Origin: a virus
Lineage: Duplodnaviria; Heunggongvirae; Uroviricota; Caudoviricetes
Reading direction: 5' to 3' (one strand)
DNA: 44,225 bases
IMG/VR virus record: IMGVR_UViG_2744054854_000007
A model generated the notes under the pieces. It saw nothing but the letters and a program-made list of their open reading frames with translations, was not told where the DNA came from and did no database searches. Within the stretch, counting starts at the first letter, position 1; the number at the start of each line of letters is the position of its first letter. The position numbers and the translations under genes were made by a program. Below, piece by piece: positions 1 to 31,414 of the stretch.

Positions 1-549
1 TCAGCTAGCTGGAAACTTTTTATACAGAGTTGAGAGCCCTACTCCATACGTTTTTGATACGCTTTGTCGTGATTCACCGGTTGCCATCCGCTCCCCCATT
101 TCCCGCCATTGCTCATCCGTGAACTTAGGCCTGCGACCACCAACTCGCCCTTTTGCCCTGGCTACGGCCAGCCCTGCTAAGGTACGTTCGCTATTAAGAT
201 CAGATTCATATTGTGCTGCGGAAAGGATGTTACGAAAGTTATAGCGGCCGCTGGCTGTTTTGAGATCCACGCCATCGGTAATACTGCGGAAGTTGATACC
301 CTTTTCCTGTAACTGCTGGAACATCAACAGCGCATGCAGAACGTTGCGGCCTATCCTGTCCAGCTTCCAGACCACCAGTTCATCCCCCGGCTGCATAGTG
401 GCGATGAGCCGTTTTAGAACCGGCCGATTCGATTTCCTCCCGCTGGCATGCTCTTCAAAAATTTTCTCACAACCCGCTGACTTGAGCGCCGTTAGTTGCA
501 ATTCAGTGTCCTGGTGGTTTGTTGATACTCGGGCATAACCGTAAATCAT
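1..549 (-). CDS. pin: Serine recombinase, DNA invertase of the Hin/Gin/Cin/Pin family
   Basis: Internal ATG at 549 of the 240-aa track ORF, preceded by GGAGA SD; product MIYGYARVST...VWKLDRIGRN...C-terminal HTH GVGLSTLYKKFP aligns by eye along its length with Hin; stop at 1-3. Confidence 0.9.
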   Translation of the reverse strand: MIYGYARVSTNHQDTELQLTALKSAGCEKIFEEHASGRKSNRPVLKRLIATMQPGDELVVWKLDRIGRNVLHALLMFQQLQEKGINFRSITDGVDLKTASGRYNFRNILSAAQYESDLNSERTLAGLAVARAKGRVGGRRPKFTDEQWREMGERMATGESRQSVSKTYGVGLSTLYKKFPAS

Positions 550-608
550 GGGATTTCTCCTGTTATGAAAACAGGAGAAACGGCGAAGCATCACCAGATT
601 TTTGATGG

Positions 609-634
609 TTATAAAAAAGGTTGGTTTGGGAGAA
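609..634. other. hix/gix-like recombination (crossover) site, left; core TT at 621-622
   Basis: TTATAAAAAAGG-TT-GGTTTGGGAGAA; outer half-site resembles hixL half TTATCAAAAACC (remembered consensus); inner half identical to inner half of right site. Confidence 0.7.
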
Positions 635-678
635 GGCTCTGCATTACCTGTTGGTGTGCCTGTTCCGTGGCCTTCAGC
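623..678. repeat. Inverted repeat (left copy) flanking the invertible tail-fibre segment
   Basis: About 56 bp reverse-complementary to 2729-2784 with one mismatch (T at 649 vs C); encodes the shared LGLGEGSALPVGVPVPWPSA block. Confidence 0.85.
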
Positions 679-1141
679 AACACCACCAACGGGATGGCTT
701 AAGTGCAACGGTGCACCGTTCACAGCATCCGAGTATCCAAAACTGGCACAGGCCTACCCGTCGCTTAAACTTCCAGATCTGCGCGGGGAGTTTATTCGTG
801 GATGGGATGACGGGCGAGGGATTGATGCAAGCCGCTCAATTATGAGTCAGCAGCAGGGTAGTTTGATGTCTATTTCTGTCTCAGCCAATACAAACGATGA
901 CAGAATTACTGTAATTCATGTCTATAACCCGCCGAGAGATTATGACGCTTTAATCAGCGGTGTAGGTATGGATTCAATGGCTGGTTATCATAAGGCATTT
1001 GATATCAGTAGTTTAGCATCCACTCTATCAACTCCAGACTTGACATCGCCTTTAGGTATGACTATCGCCGGACAGTTCGCTGTTGGCGGCGTGTCAAGAC
1101 CGCGCAACGTCGCATTTAACTACATCGTGAGGGCCGCATAA
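623..1141 (+). CDS. Alternative tail-fibre C-terminal segment (Sv'), not fused to the constant N-terminus in this orientation
   Basis: Track ORF 602-1141 begins with TTG/ATG inside the left recombination site; reading frame through the inverted repeat matches that of the active fibre; C-terminus RPRNVAFNYIVRAA conserved with active copy. Confidence 0.7.
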   Translation, partial: GLGEGSALPVGVPVPWPSATPPTGWLKCNGAPFTASEYPKLAQAYPSLKLPDLRGEFIRGWDDGRGIDASRSIMSQQQGSLMSISVSANTNDDRITVIHVYNPPRDYDALISGVGMDSMAGYHKAFDISSLASTLSTPDLTSPLGMTIAGQFAVGGVSRPRNVAFNYIVRAA

Positions 1142-1740
1142 TGGCGCAAGCTAAGCTAAATAGTAAATTTATCGCTACCGTGGCTGGGGATATCATCGTC
1201 TATAACTACAACGGTGAGACCCGTGAATATCAGTCCTCATCCGTTGAGTATCTTGCCGTAGGTGTTGGTATTCCAGCCTTATCCTGTATTGATGCGCCAG
1301 GAGAGCAAAAGGATGGTTTTGCCATTTGCCGTACATCAGATTTTAGCGCGTGGGAATATGTTCCCGATCATCGTGGTGAAACTATCTATAGCACCAAAAC
1401 TGGTGAAGCGTTTGTTGTCTCTTTGCCAGGTAACTACCCAAAAGAAACCACGACGCTGGCCCCTGCTACGCCATACGATACGTGGAACGGCAGCGAGTGG
1501 ATAACCGACACAAAAGAGAAACATGCTGCGGATGTGGTAAAGGCTGAACAGCAGAAAACCGCATTACTGGCGGAAGCGTCTGCAATCATCGCGCCATTGG
1601 CTGATGCTCAGGCTGGAGGCTACATCGACGATGCAGACGTGTCACGCCTGGCTGAGTGGCAACGGTACCGCTATAAACTGACTAAGGTTGATACCAGTAC
1701 CGCGCCAGACATTACTCTTCCACCGAAGCCGGAGGTTTAG
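1141..1740 (+). CDS. Tail-fibre assembly protein (alternative copy, Tfa')
   Basis: 199 aa, paralogous to the minus-strand copy (shared GETREY..SSSVEYLA.GVGIPALSCIDAPGE..GFAICRT..DTWNGSEW); start overlaps Sv' stop (TAATG). Confidence 0.8.
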   Translation: MAQAKLNSKFIATVAGDIIVYNYNGETREYQSSSVEYLAVGVGIPALSCIDAPGEQKDGFAICRTSDFSAWEYVPDHRGETIYSTKTGEAFVVSLPGNYPKETTTLAPATPYDTWNGSEWITDTKEKHAADVVKAEQQKTALLAEASAIIAPLADAQAGGYIDDADVSRLAEWQRYRYKLTKVDTSTAPDITLPPKPEV

Positions 1741-2323
1741 GCCATTTGATATTTGGTGCAGCGTCAGGGACGACAGCCTGCAATTCTTTTATGTAGGTCA
1801 GCCAGAGTATTAGGCTGGCCTTATCTTCATCACTGATAATCCCTAACTGTAGCTCCGTCTGCCACAGGCTGATCGTTGCATGTGCTTCAACTAAGAAAGC
1901 TGATTTTTGCTTTTCTGCAGCCTCTACGTCTGCGGTGTGTTGCTCGTCGATATTCGTAACCCACTCGCTGCCGTTCCACGTATCGTATGGCGTTAAAGGG
2001 GCTTGTGTCGTCGTATCTTTCGGATAATCACCCGGCTGGGAAATCGTGACTCGCTCACCTGTCTTCGTACTGTATACGGTTTCTCCGCGATGATCGGCGA
2101 GATACTCCCATGCGCTTAAGTCAAAGGTGCGACAAATGGCAAAGCCTTCTTTAACTTCTCCAGGAGCATCAATACATGATAAGGCTGGAATTCCTACACC
2201 TGCCGCCAAATACTCAACGGATGAAGAAAGATATTCACGGGTCTCACCATCGTAGTTAAACACCGTTATATCACCGGCCACTGTAGCAATATGCTCATTG
2301 TTTAATTTTGCCTTCGCCATCAT
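1712..2323 (-). CDS. Tail-fibre assembly protein (copy in expressed orientation)
   Basis: 203 aa; ATGA start/stop overlap with tail-fibre gene; converges on and overlaps the 3' end of the plus-strand paralog by 29 bp. Confidence 0.85.
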   Translation of the reverse strand: MMAKAKLNNEHIATVAGDITVFNYDGETREYLSSSVEYLAAGVGIPALSCIDAPGEVKEGFAICRTFDLSAWEYLADHRGETVYSTKTGERVTISQPGDYPKDTTTQAPLTPYDTWNGSEWVTNIDEQHTADVEAAEKQKSAFLVEAHATISLWQTELQLGIISDEDKASLILWLTYIKELQAVVPDAAPNIKWPKPPASVEE

Positions 2324-27463: not shown

Positions 27464-27490
27464 GACAAAAAACCCGCTCGATGGCGGGTT
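27464..27490 (-). terminator. Rho-independent terminator (minus strand), tR'-like, just downstream of Q-like gene
   Basis: AACCCGC/GCGGGTT 7-bp stem followed on the minus strand by T6. Confidence 0.6.
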
Positions 27491-27555
27491 CTTAATTCTT
27501 TGTCGACCTACGAAGCTATGGCGACGATATCAGATTTACATGAAATATATGCGTT

Positions 27556-28245
27556 TCAATCCAGTTTTGCAAGACTTGAGTCTAAATTTGTCGCCTTTTG
27601 TTGTGAACGTGATCGCGTAACCTGCAATAAAGCCCCGCTATCCAGTCGCAGGAAGATGCTGCGCATCTCAACCCAGCGGTCAGTAAAGGTCTCTGACCAG
27701 TTTTTTGGCGTTACGCCAACCAGCGACGCCAGCGCCTGATATTCGTACATCTCACGCCCTGCCAGCTCTGCTTTCACGTCCTGAGCCGCGAGCCAGACAA
27801 GCTTCTTCAGGCGCTCCATCGTTTTGCCGGCCACCTTCTTCGCGCCGAGCTGCTCCCGGAACTCTGCCCACGCCCATTGAGTGATTTCCACCTGATAGCA
27901 CCAGCGCACGTTCTCGCTATAGTTCCATAGCAGCCACGCTTTCTGGTGTTCTTCGAGTGACATCAGTGCGCGGCGCCACGATGCGCTGGAGTATTCAACC
28001 GGCTGCACCAGGGGAATATGCGAACCCTTGGCATGCGACTGCTTGCCCGGTATTGGCGGGTTATCCAGCGTAATCATTTCCCCGGTCACTTCATCCAGCA
28101 CTCGAGGCTTTTTACGTTTAAACGTTCCCGTATCGAACTGCGCGTTTTCAAGCCACGCCATCAACTGCCCTTTCGTCGCACCACTTAAATCGGCGGTGGC
28201 CACCATCAACTGCTGGCGCACGTATTCGAGAAATTGAGTATTCAT
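27556..28245 (-). CDS. Putative late-gene antiterminator (Q-like)
   Basis: 229 aa; position between nin/RusA region and lysis genes with a terminator about 65 nt downstream; family from memory only. Confidence 0.45.
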   Translation of the reverse strand: MNTQFLEYVRQQLMVATADLSGATKGQLMAWLENAQFDTGTFKRKKPRVLDEVTGEMITLDNPPIPGKQSHAKGSHIPLVQPVEYSSASWRRALMSLEEHQKAWLLWNYSENVRWCYQVEITQWAWAEFREQLGAKKVAGKTMERLKKLVWLAAQDVKAELAGREMYEYQALASLVGVTPKNWSETFTDRWVEMRSIFLRLDSGALLQVTRSRSQQKATNLDSSLAKLD

Positions 28246-30782: not shown

Positions 30783-31124
30783 TTATTTGCAGGTAAATTG
30801 CACTACATCACCCTGAGACATTTGAAAGAATCGGTAATCACCATCTCCACGTCTTTGTATAATATTGCCCTCTTTAGTCGCACCAGATGGGTATGTCTTT
30901 CCTTCCGGTTTTTCTGGCCTAATCTTGCTTGTGGTGTAAGAAATGGTCCCAAAGTTAACTGTTATTGAATTTCCGATGTCAGTTATATTTGCCTTTACTT
31001 CGCCGGATTTTACTTCATTTGAGGTCATACTCCTTGCTATTCCAGAGCATACATATTCCTTTGCTTCAACGGCATGGGGCATAAGAAAGCCAATTCCTAA
31101 CAACGTGATCGCCAAATATTTCAC
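30783..31124 (-). CDS. Small secreted protein (113 aa), candidate moron
   Basis: GTG 31124 seven nt after AAGGAG; VKYLAITLLGIGFLMPHAVEA/KE signal-like N-terminus; two Cys in mature part; AT-rich by eye. Confidence 0.5.
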   Translation of the reverse strand: MKYLAITLLGIGFLMPHAVEAKEYVCSGIARSMTSNEVKSGEVKANITDIGNSITVNFGTISYTTSKIRPEKPEGKTYPSGATKEGNIIQRRGDGDYRFFQMSQGDVVQFTCK

Positions 31125-31286
31125 TTTATCTTCTCCTTGATGAGTCCCCCTCGATACTTTGGGAGGGATTATACAAAAGAAAAGTGTGGTCATGGCTATT
31201 TTTGGTAATGTTATTCGATGATAATTCACTTTATTTTTTAAATCATAATGCTATATTTCTTTCACCCCTTGCTTGCAAGGTACAAC

Positions 31287-31378
31287 GGAGGGTTGGCCGA
31301 GTGGTTGATGGCACCTCACTGATAATGAGGCGTACGGGCTATAAACCCGTACCGCGGGTTCGAACCCCGCACCCTATT
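31287..31378 (+). tRNA. tRNA-like gene, class-II architecture, Ile-type anticodon loop CUGAUAA (GAU); possibly degenerate
   Basis: Hand-folded: D-arm GCC-GAGTGGTTGAT-GGC; anticodon arm CCTCA-CTGATAA-TGAGG; 23-nt variable hairpin; T-arm GCGGG-TTCGAAC-CCCGC; acceptor has one G:A mismatch and no encoded CCA; followed by a terminator. Confidence 0.4.
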
Positions 31379-31381
31379 TAA

Positions 31382-31414
31382 GGGGTCGACAAATGTCGGC
31401 CCCTTCTTCGTTTT
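31382..31414 (+). terminator. Rho-independent terminator (plus strand) after tRNA-like gene
   Basis: 9-bp stem GGGGTCGAC/GTCGGCCCC (one G-U), loop AAAT, then TTCTTCGTTTT. Confidence 0.6.

Follow-up and report, generated by a model that had tools for sequence, protein, structure and literature searches.

A lambdoid prophage tRNA gene with a serine-type body, an isoleucine anticodon loop and a conserved acceptor-end defect

The window analysed here, the whole 44,225-nt stretch of virus record IMGVR_UViG_2744054854_000007, carries a 92-nt class-II tRNA gene at 31287..31378 on the plus strand, which combines a long variable arm with the anticodon GAU. Annotation pipelines name it tRNA-Ile. The locus raises the question of what a temperate phage may gain from a tRNA whose architecture and anticodon disagree, and whether the gene is an isoleucine tRNA, a relic, a mimic or a weakened serine tRNA which reads isoleucine codons.

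The gene was called as tRNA-Ile(GAT), 92 nt, 31287..31378 (+), by ARAGORN, and is named tRNA-Ile by PGAP in 11 E. coli genomes. A full-model match to Rfam RF00005 was obtained at the same coordinates (46.4 bits, gathering 29, E=7e-7), with 2:71 as the sole non-standard pair marked by the model. The minimum free energy (MFE) fold of the 92 nt alone was a five-arm cloverleaf. It consisted of a D stem of 3 Watson-Crick pairs plus G13.U22, a perfect 5-bp anticodon stem with the loop CUGAUAA (loop 31319..31325, anticodon GAU 31321..31323), a 7-bp variable hairpin with the loop CUAUAAA (31332..31352) and the T arm GCGGG-UUCGAAC-CCCGC (31354..31370). The acceptor strands lie at 31287..31293 and 31371..31377 and are followed by the discriminator U at 31378; their pairing in the MFE fold was limited to 3-7:66-70, with 1:72 as G.U and 2:71 as G.A. 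No CCA is encoded, and UAA comes directly after U73. The folding z-score was weak, -1.8, and therefore the covariance-model score is the evidence that lifts the tRNA above chance. The core nucleotides U8, A14, G18G19, U33, the T-loop UUCGA and G53:C61 are all present, and the gene is a real tRNA gene.

All the structural features that the original prediction had read from the sequence by eye were recovered. It had described a tRNA-like gene of about 92 nt with a 3-bp D-stem, a perfect anticodon stem, a variable hairpin and a canonical T-arm, and both the ARAGORN and the covariance-model checks that it had named returned a tRNA with these arms. The acceptor G:A mismatch that it had noticed is G2xA71, and the absence of an encoded CCA was confirmed. 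The strong plus-strand terminator that it had placed right after the tRNA corresponds to an 11-pair hairpin at 31380..31405, and the neighbouring open reading frames and annotated genes are indeed all on the opposite strand. The loop CUGAUAA, taken there as that of tRNA-Ile GAU, is identical in E. coli ileV. The combination of class-II architecture with an Ile-type anticodon loop was also correct, and the body can be further specified as serine-type. A phage-carried tRNA, one of the identities it had considered, agrees with the position of the gene in the nin region of a lambdoid prophage and with its appearance as a self-contained unit.

The global identity of the tRNA to the four K-12 tRNA-Ser species was 62-67%, serV (GCU) being the highest, and that to the E. 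coli Ile, Leu, Tyr and Arg tRNAs was 52-57% (the K-12 tRNA genes were fetched by coordinate). The top phage-database matches were annotated tRNA-Ser. Among the class-II tRNAs compared, the nearest one with a different anticodon was a viral tRNA-Ser(GCU) with 76/92 identity, and the phage tRNA-Ser(GCU/ACU) genes share with the window tRNA the D arm, the 5' strand GGAGGGU and the style of the variable arm. The D arm UGGCCGAGUGGUUGAUGGCA and the layout of the variable region, C44, stem, C48, are serine-type. The long variable arm with one unpaired nucleotide on each side, the 3-bp D stem with C11:G24 and the tRNA-Ser relatives all agree with a bacterial tRNA-Ser body, which carries here the anticodon GAU instead of NGA or GCU. 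The anticodon takes no part in the recognition by seryl-tRNA synthetase (SerRS), for which the variable arm is the main determinant and G73 a determinant in vivo (PMC9976931).

The isoleucine likeness is limited to the anticodon loop, and the remainder of the molecule reads as a serine tRNA. The loop matches that of ileV including A37 and A38, so that G34, A35, U36, A37 and A38 of the tRNA-Ile identity set are present; the same loop is one substitution (C35A) off the tRNA-Ser(GCU) loop CUGCUAA. In the E. coli tRNA-Ile set, A73 is a strong determinant, and C4:G69, U12:A23 and C29:G41 are minor ones (PMC9976931). The window tRNA has U73, G4:C69, C12:G23 and U29:A41 at these places, and a 23-nt variable region instead of the short class-I region required for tRNA-Ile. 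As the determinants of isoleucyl-tRNA synthetase (IleRS) outside the anticodon loop are nearly all absent, it is not a working tRNA-Ile, and its annotation as 'tRNA-Ile' misleads. An authentic, though atypical, tRNA-Ile, charged by IleRS via the anticodon loop and supplying isoleucine, for example, when the host tRNA-Ile is cleaved, is accordingly regarded as very improbable, even though the loop is that of ileV, PGAP and ARAGORN so name the gene, and the fidelity of such a tRNA would need the serine determinants to be knocked out. Against it stand the four identity positions, the fact that a normal tRNA-Ile is open to any phage, and the occurrence of the same end and serine body on alleles with the anticodons UAG and GAA, since acceptance by IleRS, LeuRS and PheRS would all be unlikely. 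On account of the identity set and of the scaffold common to the Leu and Phe alleles, a true tRNA-Ile was rejected.

The original prediction had also found the variable loop CUAUAAA anticodon-like. Such 7-nt loops are ordinary in tRNA-Ser(GCU), and the loop is inherited with the lineage and varies among alleles. A second anticodon at this place was rejected: E. coli serV has a comparable 7-nt loop, the corresponding loop of L080, the nearest relative, is CUUAAA, and the contigs L003 and L048 have CCAUAAA.

The acceptor end of the tRNA differs from that of its relatives at three positions. The 3' strand is ACCCTAT followed by T, and positions 71-73 (31376..31378, +) are thus A71-U72-U73 with no CCA after them, compared with C71-C72-G73 of the related tRNA-Ser. 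The 5' strand GGAGGGU is common to the window tRNA and the viral tRNA-Ser, in which it is paired by ACCCUCC-G; the tRNA-Ser of a large viral group begin with the identical 20 nt, GGAGGGTTGGCCGAGTGGTT, and have the 3' strand ACCCTCC followed by G73. Whereas these phage tRNA-Ser(GCU/ACU) have serine anticodons, full acceptors with C71, C72 and G73 and mostly an encoded CCA, the AUU change abolishes G1:C72, G2:C71 and G73 of the window tRNA, leaving G1.U72, G2xA71 and U73 where the serine rule (PMC9976931) asks for an intact end. All the acceptor-end elements of bacterial serine identity are therefore removed, and the variable arm, which would attract SerRS, is kept.

Sister alleles were looked for by scanning viral contigs for the 5' 20-mer, for the 18-mer of the leader and for the aberrant 3' end; the scans for the 20-mer and the 18-mer left the 3' end free. 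All the sister alleles end with CACCCTATT, and ARAGORN names them Ile, Leu and Phe with the anticodons GAU, UAG and GAA. L184 and L186, the latter in a Klebsiella-like lambdoid nin region, have the loop CUUAGGA with the anticodon UAG and G37, and in their variable stem one G-C pair is replaced by A-U, both strands being changed. L235, beside the lysis cassette of a Pantoea/Klebsiella-like phage, has the loop UUGAAAG with the anticodon GAA and a different D loop and variable arm. Two further alleles have the anticodon GAU: L211, a 1.4-kb locus of a 48.7-kb viral contig, with the loop CUGAUAC, a different variable arm and the T stem GAGGG/CCCUC, and the viral contig L241 with the loop UUGAUCC, a different leader and one T-stem mismatch.

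In the alignment of six distinct alleles, G1.U72 and G2xA71 were found in 6/6, and the pair 50:64 flips from C-G to A-U on both sides; L241 also has this 3' end. The variable arms of L211 and L235 are unrelated in sequence and still form hairpins, as does the arm of every allele. The variable part is the anticodon loop, with 3-4 substitutions within constant stems. Position 37 tracks position 36 as in natural tRNAs, A37 following U36 or A36 and G37 following G36, and all three anticodons, GAU, UAG and GAA, read codons of hydrophobic amino acids. The gene belongs to a small family on temperate phages of Enterobacterales, in which the scaffold is fixed and the anticodon is exchangeable. The presence of the same broken scaffold with Leu or Phe anticodons in sister phages indicates that it is not an ordinary supply tRNA.

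A degenerate tRNA pseudogene, another identity considered in the original prediction, is not supported by these alleles. Only positions 71-73 are defective, and they stay the same in alleles that differ in their anticodons and carry compensatory changes elsewhere; both the promoter-like site and the terminator are retained. The compensatory stem changes and the invariant positions 71-73 argue that the stems are under selection and that the acceptor defect is a fixed feature and not decay.

In about 38 other viral contigs (L187-L225, mostly from one metagenome), tRNA-Ser genes were found with the first 20 nt of the window tRNA and the canonical ACCCTCC-G end. In these, for example in L188 1210..1295 (-), ARAGORN assigned the anticodon ACU; the anticodon arm has apparently 4 pairs and the 9-nt loop CUUACUAAU, and a tRNA-Gln gene adjoins.

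The tRNA gene is predicted to be its own transcription unit. The promoter-like region at 31230..31257 (+), proposed from sequence reading, consists of a weak -35 element TTTATT (31230..31235), a 16-nt spacer and an extended -10 element TGcTATATT (31249..31257). TATATT is kept in the window, L003 and L048 despite unrelated upstream DNA; L003 has a better -35 element, TTGATT-16-TATATT, and both L048 and L235 have TGgTATATT. From the conserved TATATT and the TG motif, the site is proposed to be the putative promoter of the tRNA. It is followed by a 5' leader (31265..31286, +) with the hairpin CCCCTTGCTTGCAAGGTA at 31265..31282 and then CAAC. The leader 18-mer is identical in the window, L003, L048, L184, L186, L211 and L235, an invariance that is partly a retrieval effect, as some family members were retrieved with this 18-mer; the leader of L241 is different. 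The intrinsic-terminator-like element (31380..31414, +), detected by the terminator hairpin scan and by allele comparison, has a hairpin of 11 pairs, 7 of them G-C (31380..31405), and the U-rich tail CUUCGUUUUA. Its inner stem is invariant, and changes in L003, L048 and L184 occur only in the loop or the outermost pair. L003 and L048 are close alleles in phage contigs with unrelated neighbouring genes, and the homology among the three phage contexts begins at the -10 region and ends at the end of the terminator, which points to a self-contained unit. In the fold of the whole 156-nt transcript, AACGGAG (31284..31290), which comprises the end of the leader and the first acceptor bases, pairs with CUUCGUU (31406..31412) just past the terminator stem and displaces the acceptor helix. 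This pairing is kept in L003 via a C-to-U change, and it might matter for the processing of the precursor.

The bounds of this homology also bear on the possibility that the gene is a recombination artefact, i.e. a tRNA, hybrid or incomplete, which integration left behind at an att junction. Elsewhere, L006 and L045 are 5' halves which stop just past CUGAUAA, and several broken GAU tRNAs border variable islands. The window gene, on the other hand, lies inside the prophage, in the nin region between the replication genes and Q, and its homology is bounded by promoter and terminator and not by a sub-segment of the tRNA. Moreover, an att copy of a tRNA-Ser should keep its serine anticodon, and tRNA-Ser(GCU) controls are almost never broken. 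A tRNA fragment of an att site was rejected at this locus because the homology runs from the -10 region to the terminator and because of the nin-region position, and an artefact of this kind is considered extremely improbable.

The occurrence of serine bodies with the isoleucine loop was studied also outside this family, using a degenerate pattern of a serine-type D arm followed by CUGAUAA. Matches were obtained in 2 viral, 12 genome and 34 metagenome stretches from many phyla, resulting in 36 distinct full tRNAs in about 20 sequence clusters and two 5' fragments. The control was the same pattern with GCU in viral contigs (56 distinct tRNAs). In the GAU set, 1:72 was paired in 17/36 and 2:71 in 10/36, being G:C in only 7, while 3:70 was paired in 30/36 and positions 4-7 in 34-36/36, and the anticodon and T stems were intact. 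Among the GCU controls, all seven acceptor pairs were found in 55/56, G2:C71 in 55/56 and G73 in 54/56. The acceptor top was broken in 29/36 Ser-type GAU tRNAs vs 1/56 controls (Fisher p=3e-16, full pairing), in a comparison where the control comes from viral contigs and the GAU set from three collections, and where the counts ignore the relatedness within the about 20 clusters.

The GAU breaks were varied: the 3' CC was changed to AU, AA, AG, GG and others, and the 5' GG to CC, GC, UC and others. The pattern is unlike random inactivation, because the spontaneous suppressors of toxic yeast tRNA-Ser(GAU/GAA) hit the variable arm and all stems (PMC6125640). A simple rule emerges, according to which natural serine bodies with an Ile anticodon occur almost only where the SerRS-read pairs 1:72 and 2:71 are broken.

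These data bear also on the possibility that the gene is an inert relic, a phage tRNA-Ser which acquired a toxic anticodon mutation, was silenced by acceptor-end mutations and is hitch-hiking. The single substitution C35A between CUGCUAA and CUGAUAA fits such an origin, as does the high toxicity of Ser-body GAU tRNAs (PMC6125640). The gene is rare, being found in 11/5426 E. coli genomes, and the three closest alleles differ by 2 substitutions in 92 nt, too few for a selection test. However, the promoter, the leader, all stems and the terminator are kept, with compensation, in at least 5 diverged alleles of different phages, and the anticodons are 3-4 loop substitutions apart within constant stems. 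The natural defects are confined to 1:72 and 2:71, unlike those of the yeast suppressors. We therefore consider an inert relic improbable.

Several further class-II tRNAs were noted. L014 2766..2858 (+), from a Pseudomonadota metagenome-assembled genome, is a serV-like tRNA in a Ser-Arg-His cluster with the loop CUGAUAA for CUGCUAA; its acceptor GGAGACG/CGUCUCC is intact and followed by G73 and CCA, and either it is a true Ser-at-Ile tRNA of full strength or a single base was wrongly assembled. Another five, L005, L041, L043, L050 and L064, are intact as well. L036 (OGVT01004192.1) is a class-II GAU tRNA with the perfect acceptor UCUGGGA/UCCCAGA, A73 and CCA, and its end is Leu- or Tyr-type, not serine-type. 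Soil metagenome contigs L035, L057, L058, L060 and L063 contain an orthologous chromosomal GAU lineage with G1:C72, a conserved C2xC71, G73 and an encoded CCA, in which the variable arm and the T stem show compensatory changes and the downstream sequence is conserved; L058 adjoins a YebC-like gene. L047/L062 have a tandem duplication, GGGACGCCCCGTGGGACGCCCCGTGGG, which runs from the variable arm into the T stem of a class-II GAU tRNA. In L006 and L045, the serine-type 5' halves stop just past CUGAUAA(G) and continue with unrelated DNA, resembling a recombination junction in the anticodon loop. Serine-type class-II tRNAs with the GUU (Asn) anticodon were found in the viral contigs L066, L072, L075, L081, L084, L150 and L180, several of them >100 kb. 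Unlike the GAU set, they have perfect acceptors and G73 and no broken end, and could be full-strength Ser-for-Asn candidates or a phage-specific oddity.

Taken together, we tentatively favour, with a confidence that stops somewhat short of even, a dampened missense tRNA, which would be mostly uncharged, at most weakly or conditionally serylated, and would act through its anticodon on AUC/AUU. Transcription would start at the extended -10 promoter of the gene itself and run against the early operon of the phage, probably in the lysogen, because the operon which it opposes is repressed there. The transcript would be cut by RNase P, trimmed and supplied with CCA by the host enzyme, and a normal L-shaped fold is expected because all the core tertiary nucleotides are present. 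The long variable arm would still attract SerRS, but the charging would be poor: the broken acceptor top may cause both inefficient serylation and inefficient delivery by EF-Tu. The wobble and the mismatch at 1:72 and 2:71 would weaken the delivery by EF-Tu, as the 1:72 mismatch does in the initiator tRNA. The unstable acceptor stem would also expose the tRNA to CCACCA/RNase R quality-control decay, a tagging pathway that reportedly requires a 5' GG. Bacterial CCA-adding enzymes mark tRNAs having unstable acceptor stems by CCACCA for RNase R, and the pathway operates in E. coli (PMC5824355). The anticodon would be the exchangeable specificity part on the fixed scaffold; serine bodies with GAU or GAA are among the most toxic tRNA variants, the former directing Ser to AUC/AUU (PMC6125640).

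Some observations weigh against a dampened missense tRNA. The invariance of the 5' strand and the leader is partly due to the search patterns, which fixed those parts. The atypical loop positions C37 in L241 and C38 in L211 fit efficient decoding poorly. The site upstream of the tRNA was not flagged in the promoter scan of the window, its -35 element being weak. The mixed sampling and the relatedness in the comparison of GAU and GCU tRNAs, given above, count here as well. Finally, a normal acceptor with a weaker promoter would suffice for the insertion of Ser, and the strict AUU end may instead mark the recognition by an unknown factor.

The leading alternative is a tRNA that escapes acylation entirely. 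Such a mimic or decoy would stay uncharged. It could serve as a bait or competitor, directed at a nuclease that cuts anticodon loops or at an enzyme that reads anticodons, or it could enter the A site deacylated and so mimic Ile, Leu or Phe starvation. The loss of all acceptor-end serine determinants, and its conservation, would follow naturally, and so would the identity of CUGAUAA to the host tRNA-Ile loop and the much faster change of the anticodon loop than of the stems, as expected of a specificity module in a conflict. For E. coli tRNA-Ile(GAU), cleavage by an anticodon-loop nuclease of contact-dependent inhibition (CDI) has been demonstrated (PMC11724271), and phage tRNAs have been proposed to counter tRNA-targeting defences (PMC10264068). 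Other broken GAU tRNAs adjoin the defence genes AbiL-like, GmrSD, Shedu, NERD and AEP-TOTE, a setting which may merely reflect that islands adjoin tRNA genes. A catalytic nuclease, however, is hard to titrate, no partner nuclease or toxin was linked to the gene among the neighbours scanned in the phages, and the long variable arm, unneeded in a decoy, is kept by every allele despite its sequence turnover. A mimic or decoy is thus possible but rather unlikely.

The defence genes were found at the following places beside acceptor-broken GAU tRNAs: an AbiL-like ATPase with DUF3226 in L015 3823..5608 (-), two GmrSD-like proteins with a MvaI/BcnI-type nuclease in L055 4482..9224 (+), Shedu SduA in L054 717..1673, a NERD nuclease in L012 6447..7442, and an AEP-TOTE/PrimPol primase-helicase in L037 2887..5454. 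This proximity is anecdotal, and the location of islands next to tRNA genes may alone explain it.

A bolder extension of the dampened missense tRNA is regarded as unlikely. The gene could represent a natural conflict module built on a tRNA, and would be the first of its kind to be recognised. The crippled Ser scaffold would ordinarily do no harm, being poorly charged and quickly degraded, and its swappable Ile, Leu or Phe anticodon would direct it to hydrophobic codons. Upon some trigger, for instance if RNA decay or the quality control of tRNAs is blocked during superinfection, it would accumulate, place Ser at hydrophobic positions or jam these codons, and abort growth. If true, tS*-I(GAU) and tS*-F(GAA), which were engineered to be conditionally toxic, would have a counterpart in nature, and the many Ser-type GAU tRNAs with a broken acceptor that adjoin defence genes in unrelated bacteria would be accounted for in the same way.

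Among the described systems, the closest family is that of allo-tRNAs. These combine a serine-like body and its long variable arm with anticodons that are mostly not those of serine, most often Ile (UAU) (PMC5389517); the anticodons vary between copies, as GAU, UAG and GAA do here. Stem-destabilising changes are found in many copies, which show no activity in E. coli translation assays and lie near toxin-antitoxin or mobile elements (PMC5389517). However, allo-tRNAs are defined by a 12-bp acceptor branch of 8/4 or 9/3 (PMC5389517), and the window tRNA has the canonical 7/5 geometry; the active ones keep the serine identity elements, which the window tRNA has lost. They are known from Clostridia, Proteobacteria, Acidobacteria and their phages and from soil and sediment metagenomes (PMC5389517), but are not reported as enterobacterial prophage morons, and GAU is missing from the text of PMC5389517. 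Due to the 7/5 geometry and the lost serine determinants, the window tRNA should not be filed as an allo-tRNA.

The serine body with an Ile or Phe anticodon is shared with mistranslating tRNA-Ser variants, including yeast tS*-I(GAU) and tS*-F(GAA) (PMC6125640), dampened tRNA-Ser(UGG) (PMC6827378) and human tRNA-Ser-AGA G35A (PMC12993449). In the yeast design, the toxicity was curbed by acceptor-stem mutations which destabilise the tRNA (PMC6125640), and the same two parts, a swapped anticodon and a weakened acceptor, are present in the window tRNA. The difference is that those are laboratory constructs or human single-nucleotide variants, whereas the window tRNA belongs to a conserved natural phage family with its own predicted promoter and terminator. 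In nematode nev-tRNAs, which are class-II with Ile or Gly anticodons, architecture and anticodon disagree as well, but these are eukaryotic, leucine-charged, have an intact acceptor and are not related by descent (PMC3333845). Alloacceptor anticodon shifts, or remolding, likewise place the anticodon of a new amino acid on an old body (PMC3923123, PMC4783518); remolded tRNAs function in the new family, whereas the window tRNA is without a new identity set and has the old one deleted. In the literature search, no class-II GAU tRNA of bacteria and no prophage mistranslating tRNA was found described, which is not a proof of absence.

Pipelines that name the gene by its anticodon hide its unfitness for the ordinary role of a tRNA-Ile. 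An active family would offer an example from nature of a mobile element with an attenuated missense tRNA or an uncharged mimic, in which the anticodon is an exchangeable specificity module. It would bear on why temperate phages carry single tRNA genes, and on regulated mistranslation or tRNA mimicry in the conflict between phage and host.

By gene content and annotation, the window is a lambdoid prophage of E. coli. Its early genes on the minus strand are, in order, those of a DnaT-domain protein, a DnaC-like replication protein, small nin-region proteins, a Pol III theta homologue, DUF1367, RusA and the antiterminator Q. The tRNA lies on the plus strand between the replication genes and the Pol III theta homologue and, all neighbouring open reading frames and annotated genes being on the minus strand, is antisense to the nin-region genes. 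An identical 331-bp stretch was found in 11/5426 complete E. coli genomes, where PGAP gives the name tRNA-Ile, and also in gut and other metagenome contigs; it was absent from the deposited phage genomes in the collection searched. BLAST of the 92-nt tRNA against the 5426 E. coli genomes (E<=10) returned the 11 identical copies and nothing else.

The divergent neighbour of the tRNA at 30783..31124 (-) encodes a 113-aa protein with an N-terminal signal-peptide-like segment and co-occurs with the tRNA in E. coli genomes. It matched no Pfam or PADLOC family and was missing beside the tRNA in the phage contigs L003 and L048. Because it is absent in these other phage contexts, no protein partner is evident, and the 113-aa protein is probably not a functional partner of the tRNA. 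Pfam and PADLOC scans of the neighbours at 20 loci revealed no family in common. In L003, a 564-aa orphan protein without a Pfam or PADLOC family (501..2195, -) adjoins the tRNA unit and sits where morons and defence genes usually stand.

A match to the Rfam family isrJ was detected in the window at 27468..27540 (-), with 58.7 bits against a gathering of 37. The gene of the antiterminator Q (27556..28245, Pfam Phage_antiter_Q, E=1e-101) lies 16 nt upstream of this match. From its position, the Salmonella 'island small RNA' IsrJ therefore resembles a short leader RNA that is made, and soon terminated, at the late (Q-dependent) promoter of a lambdoid phage.

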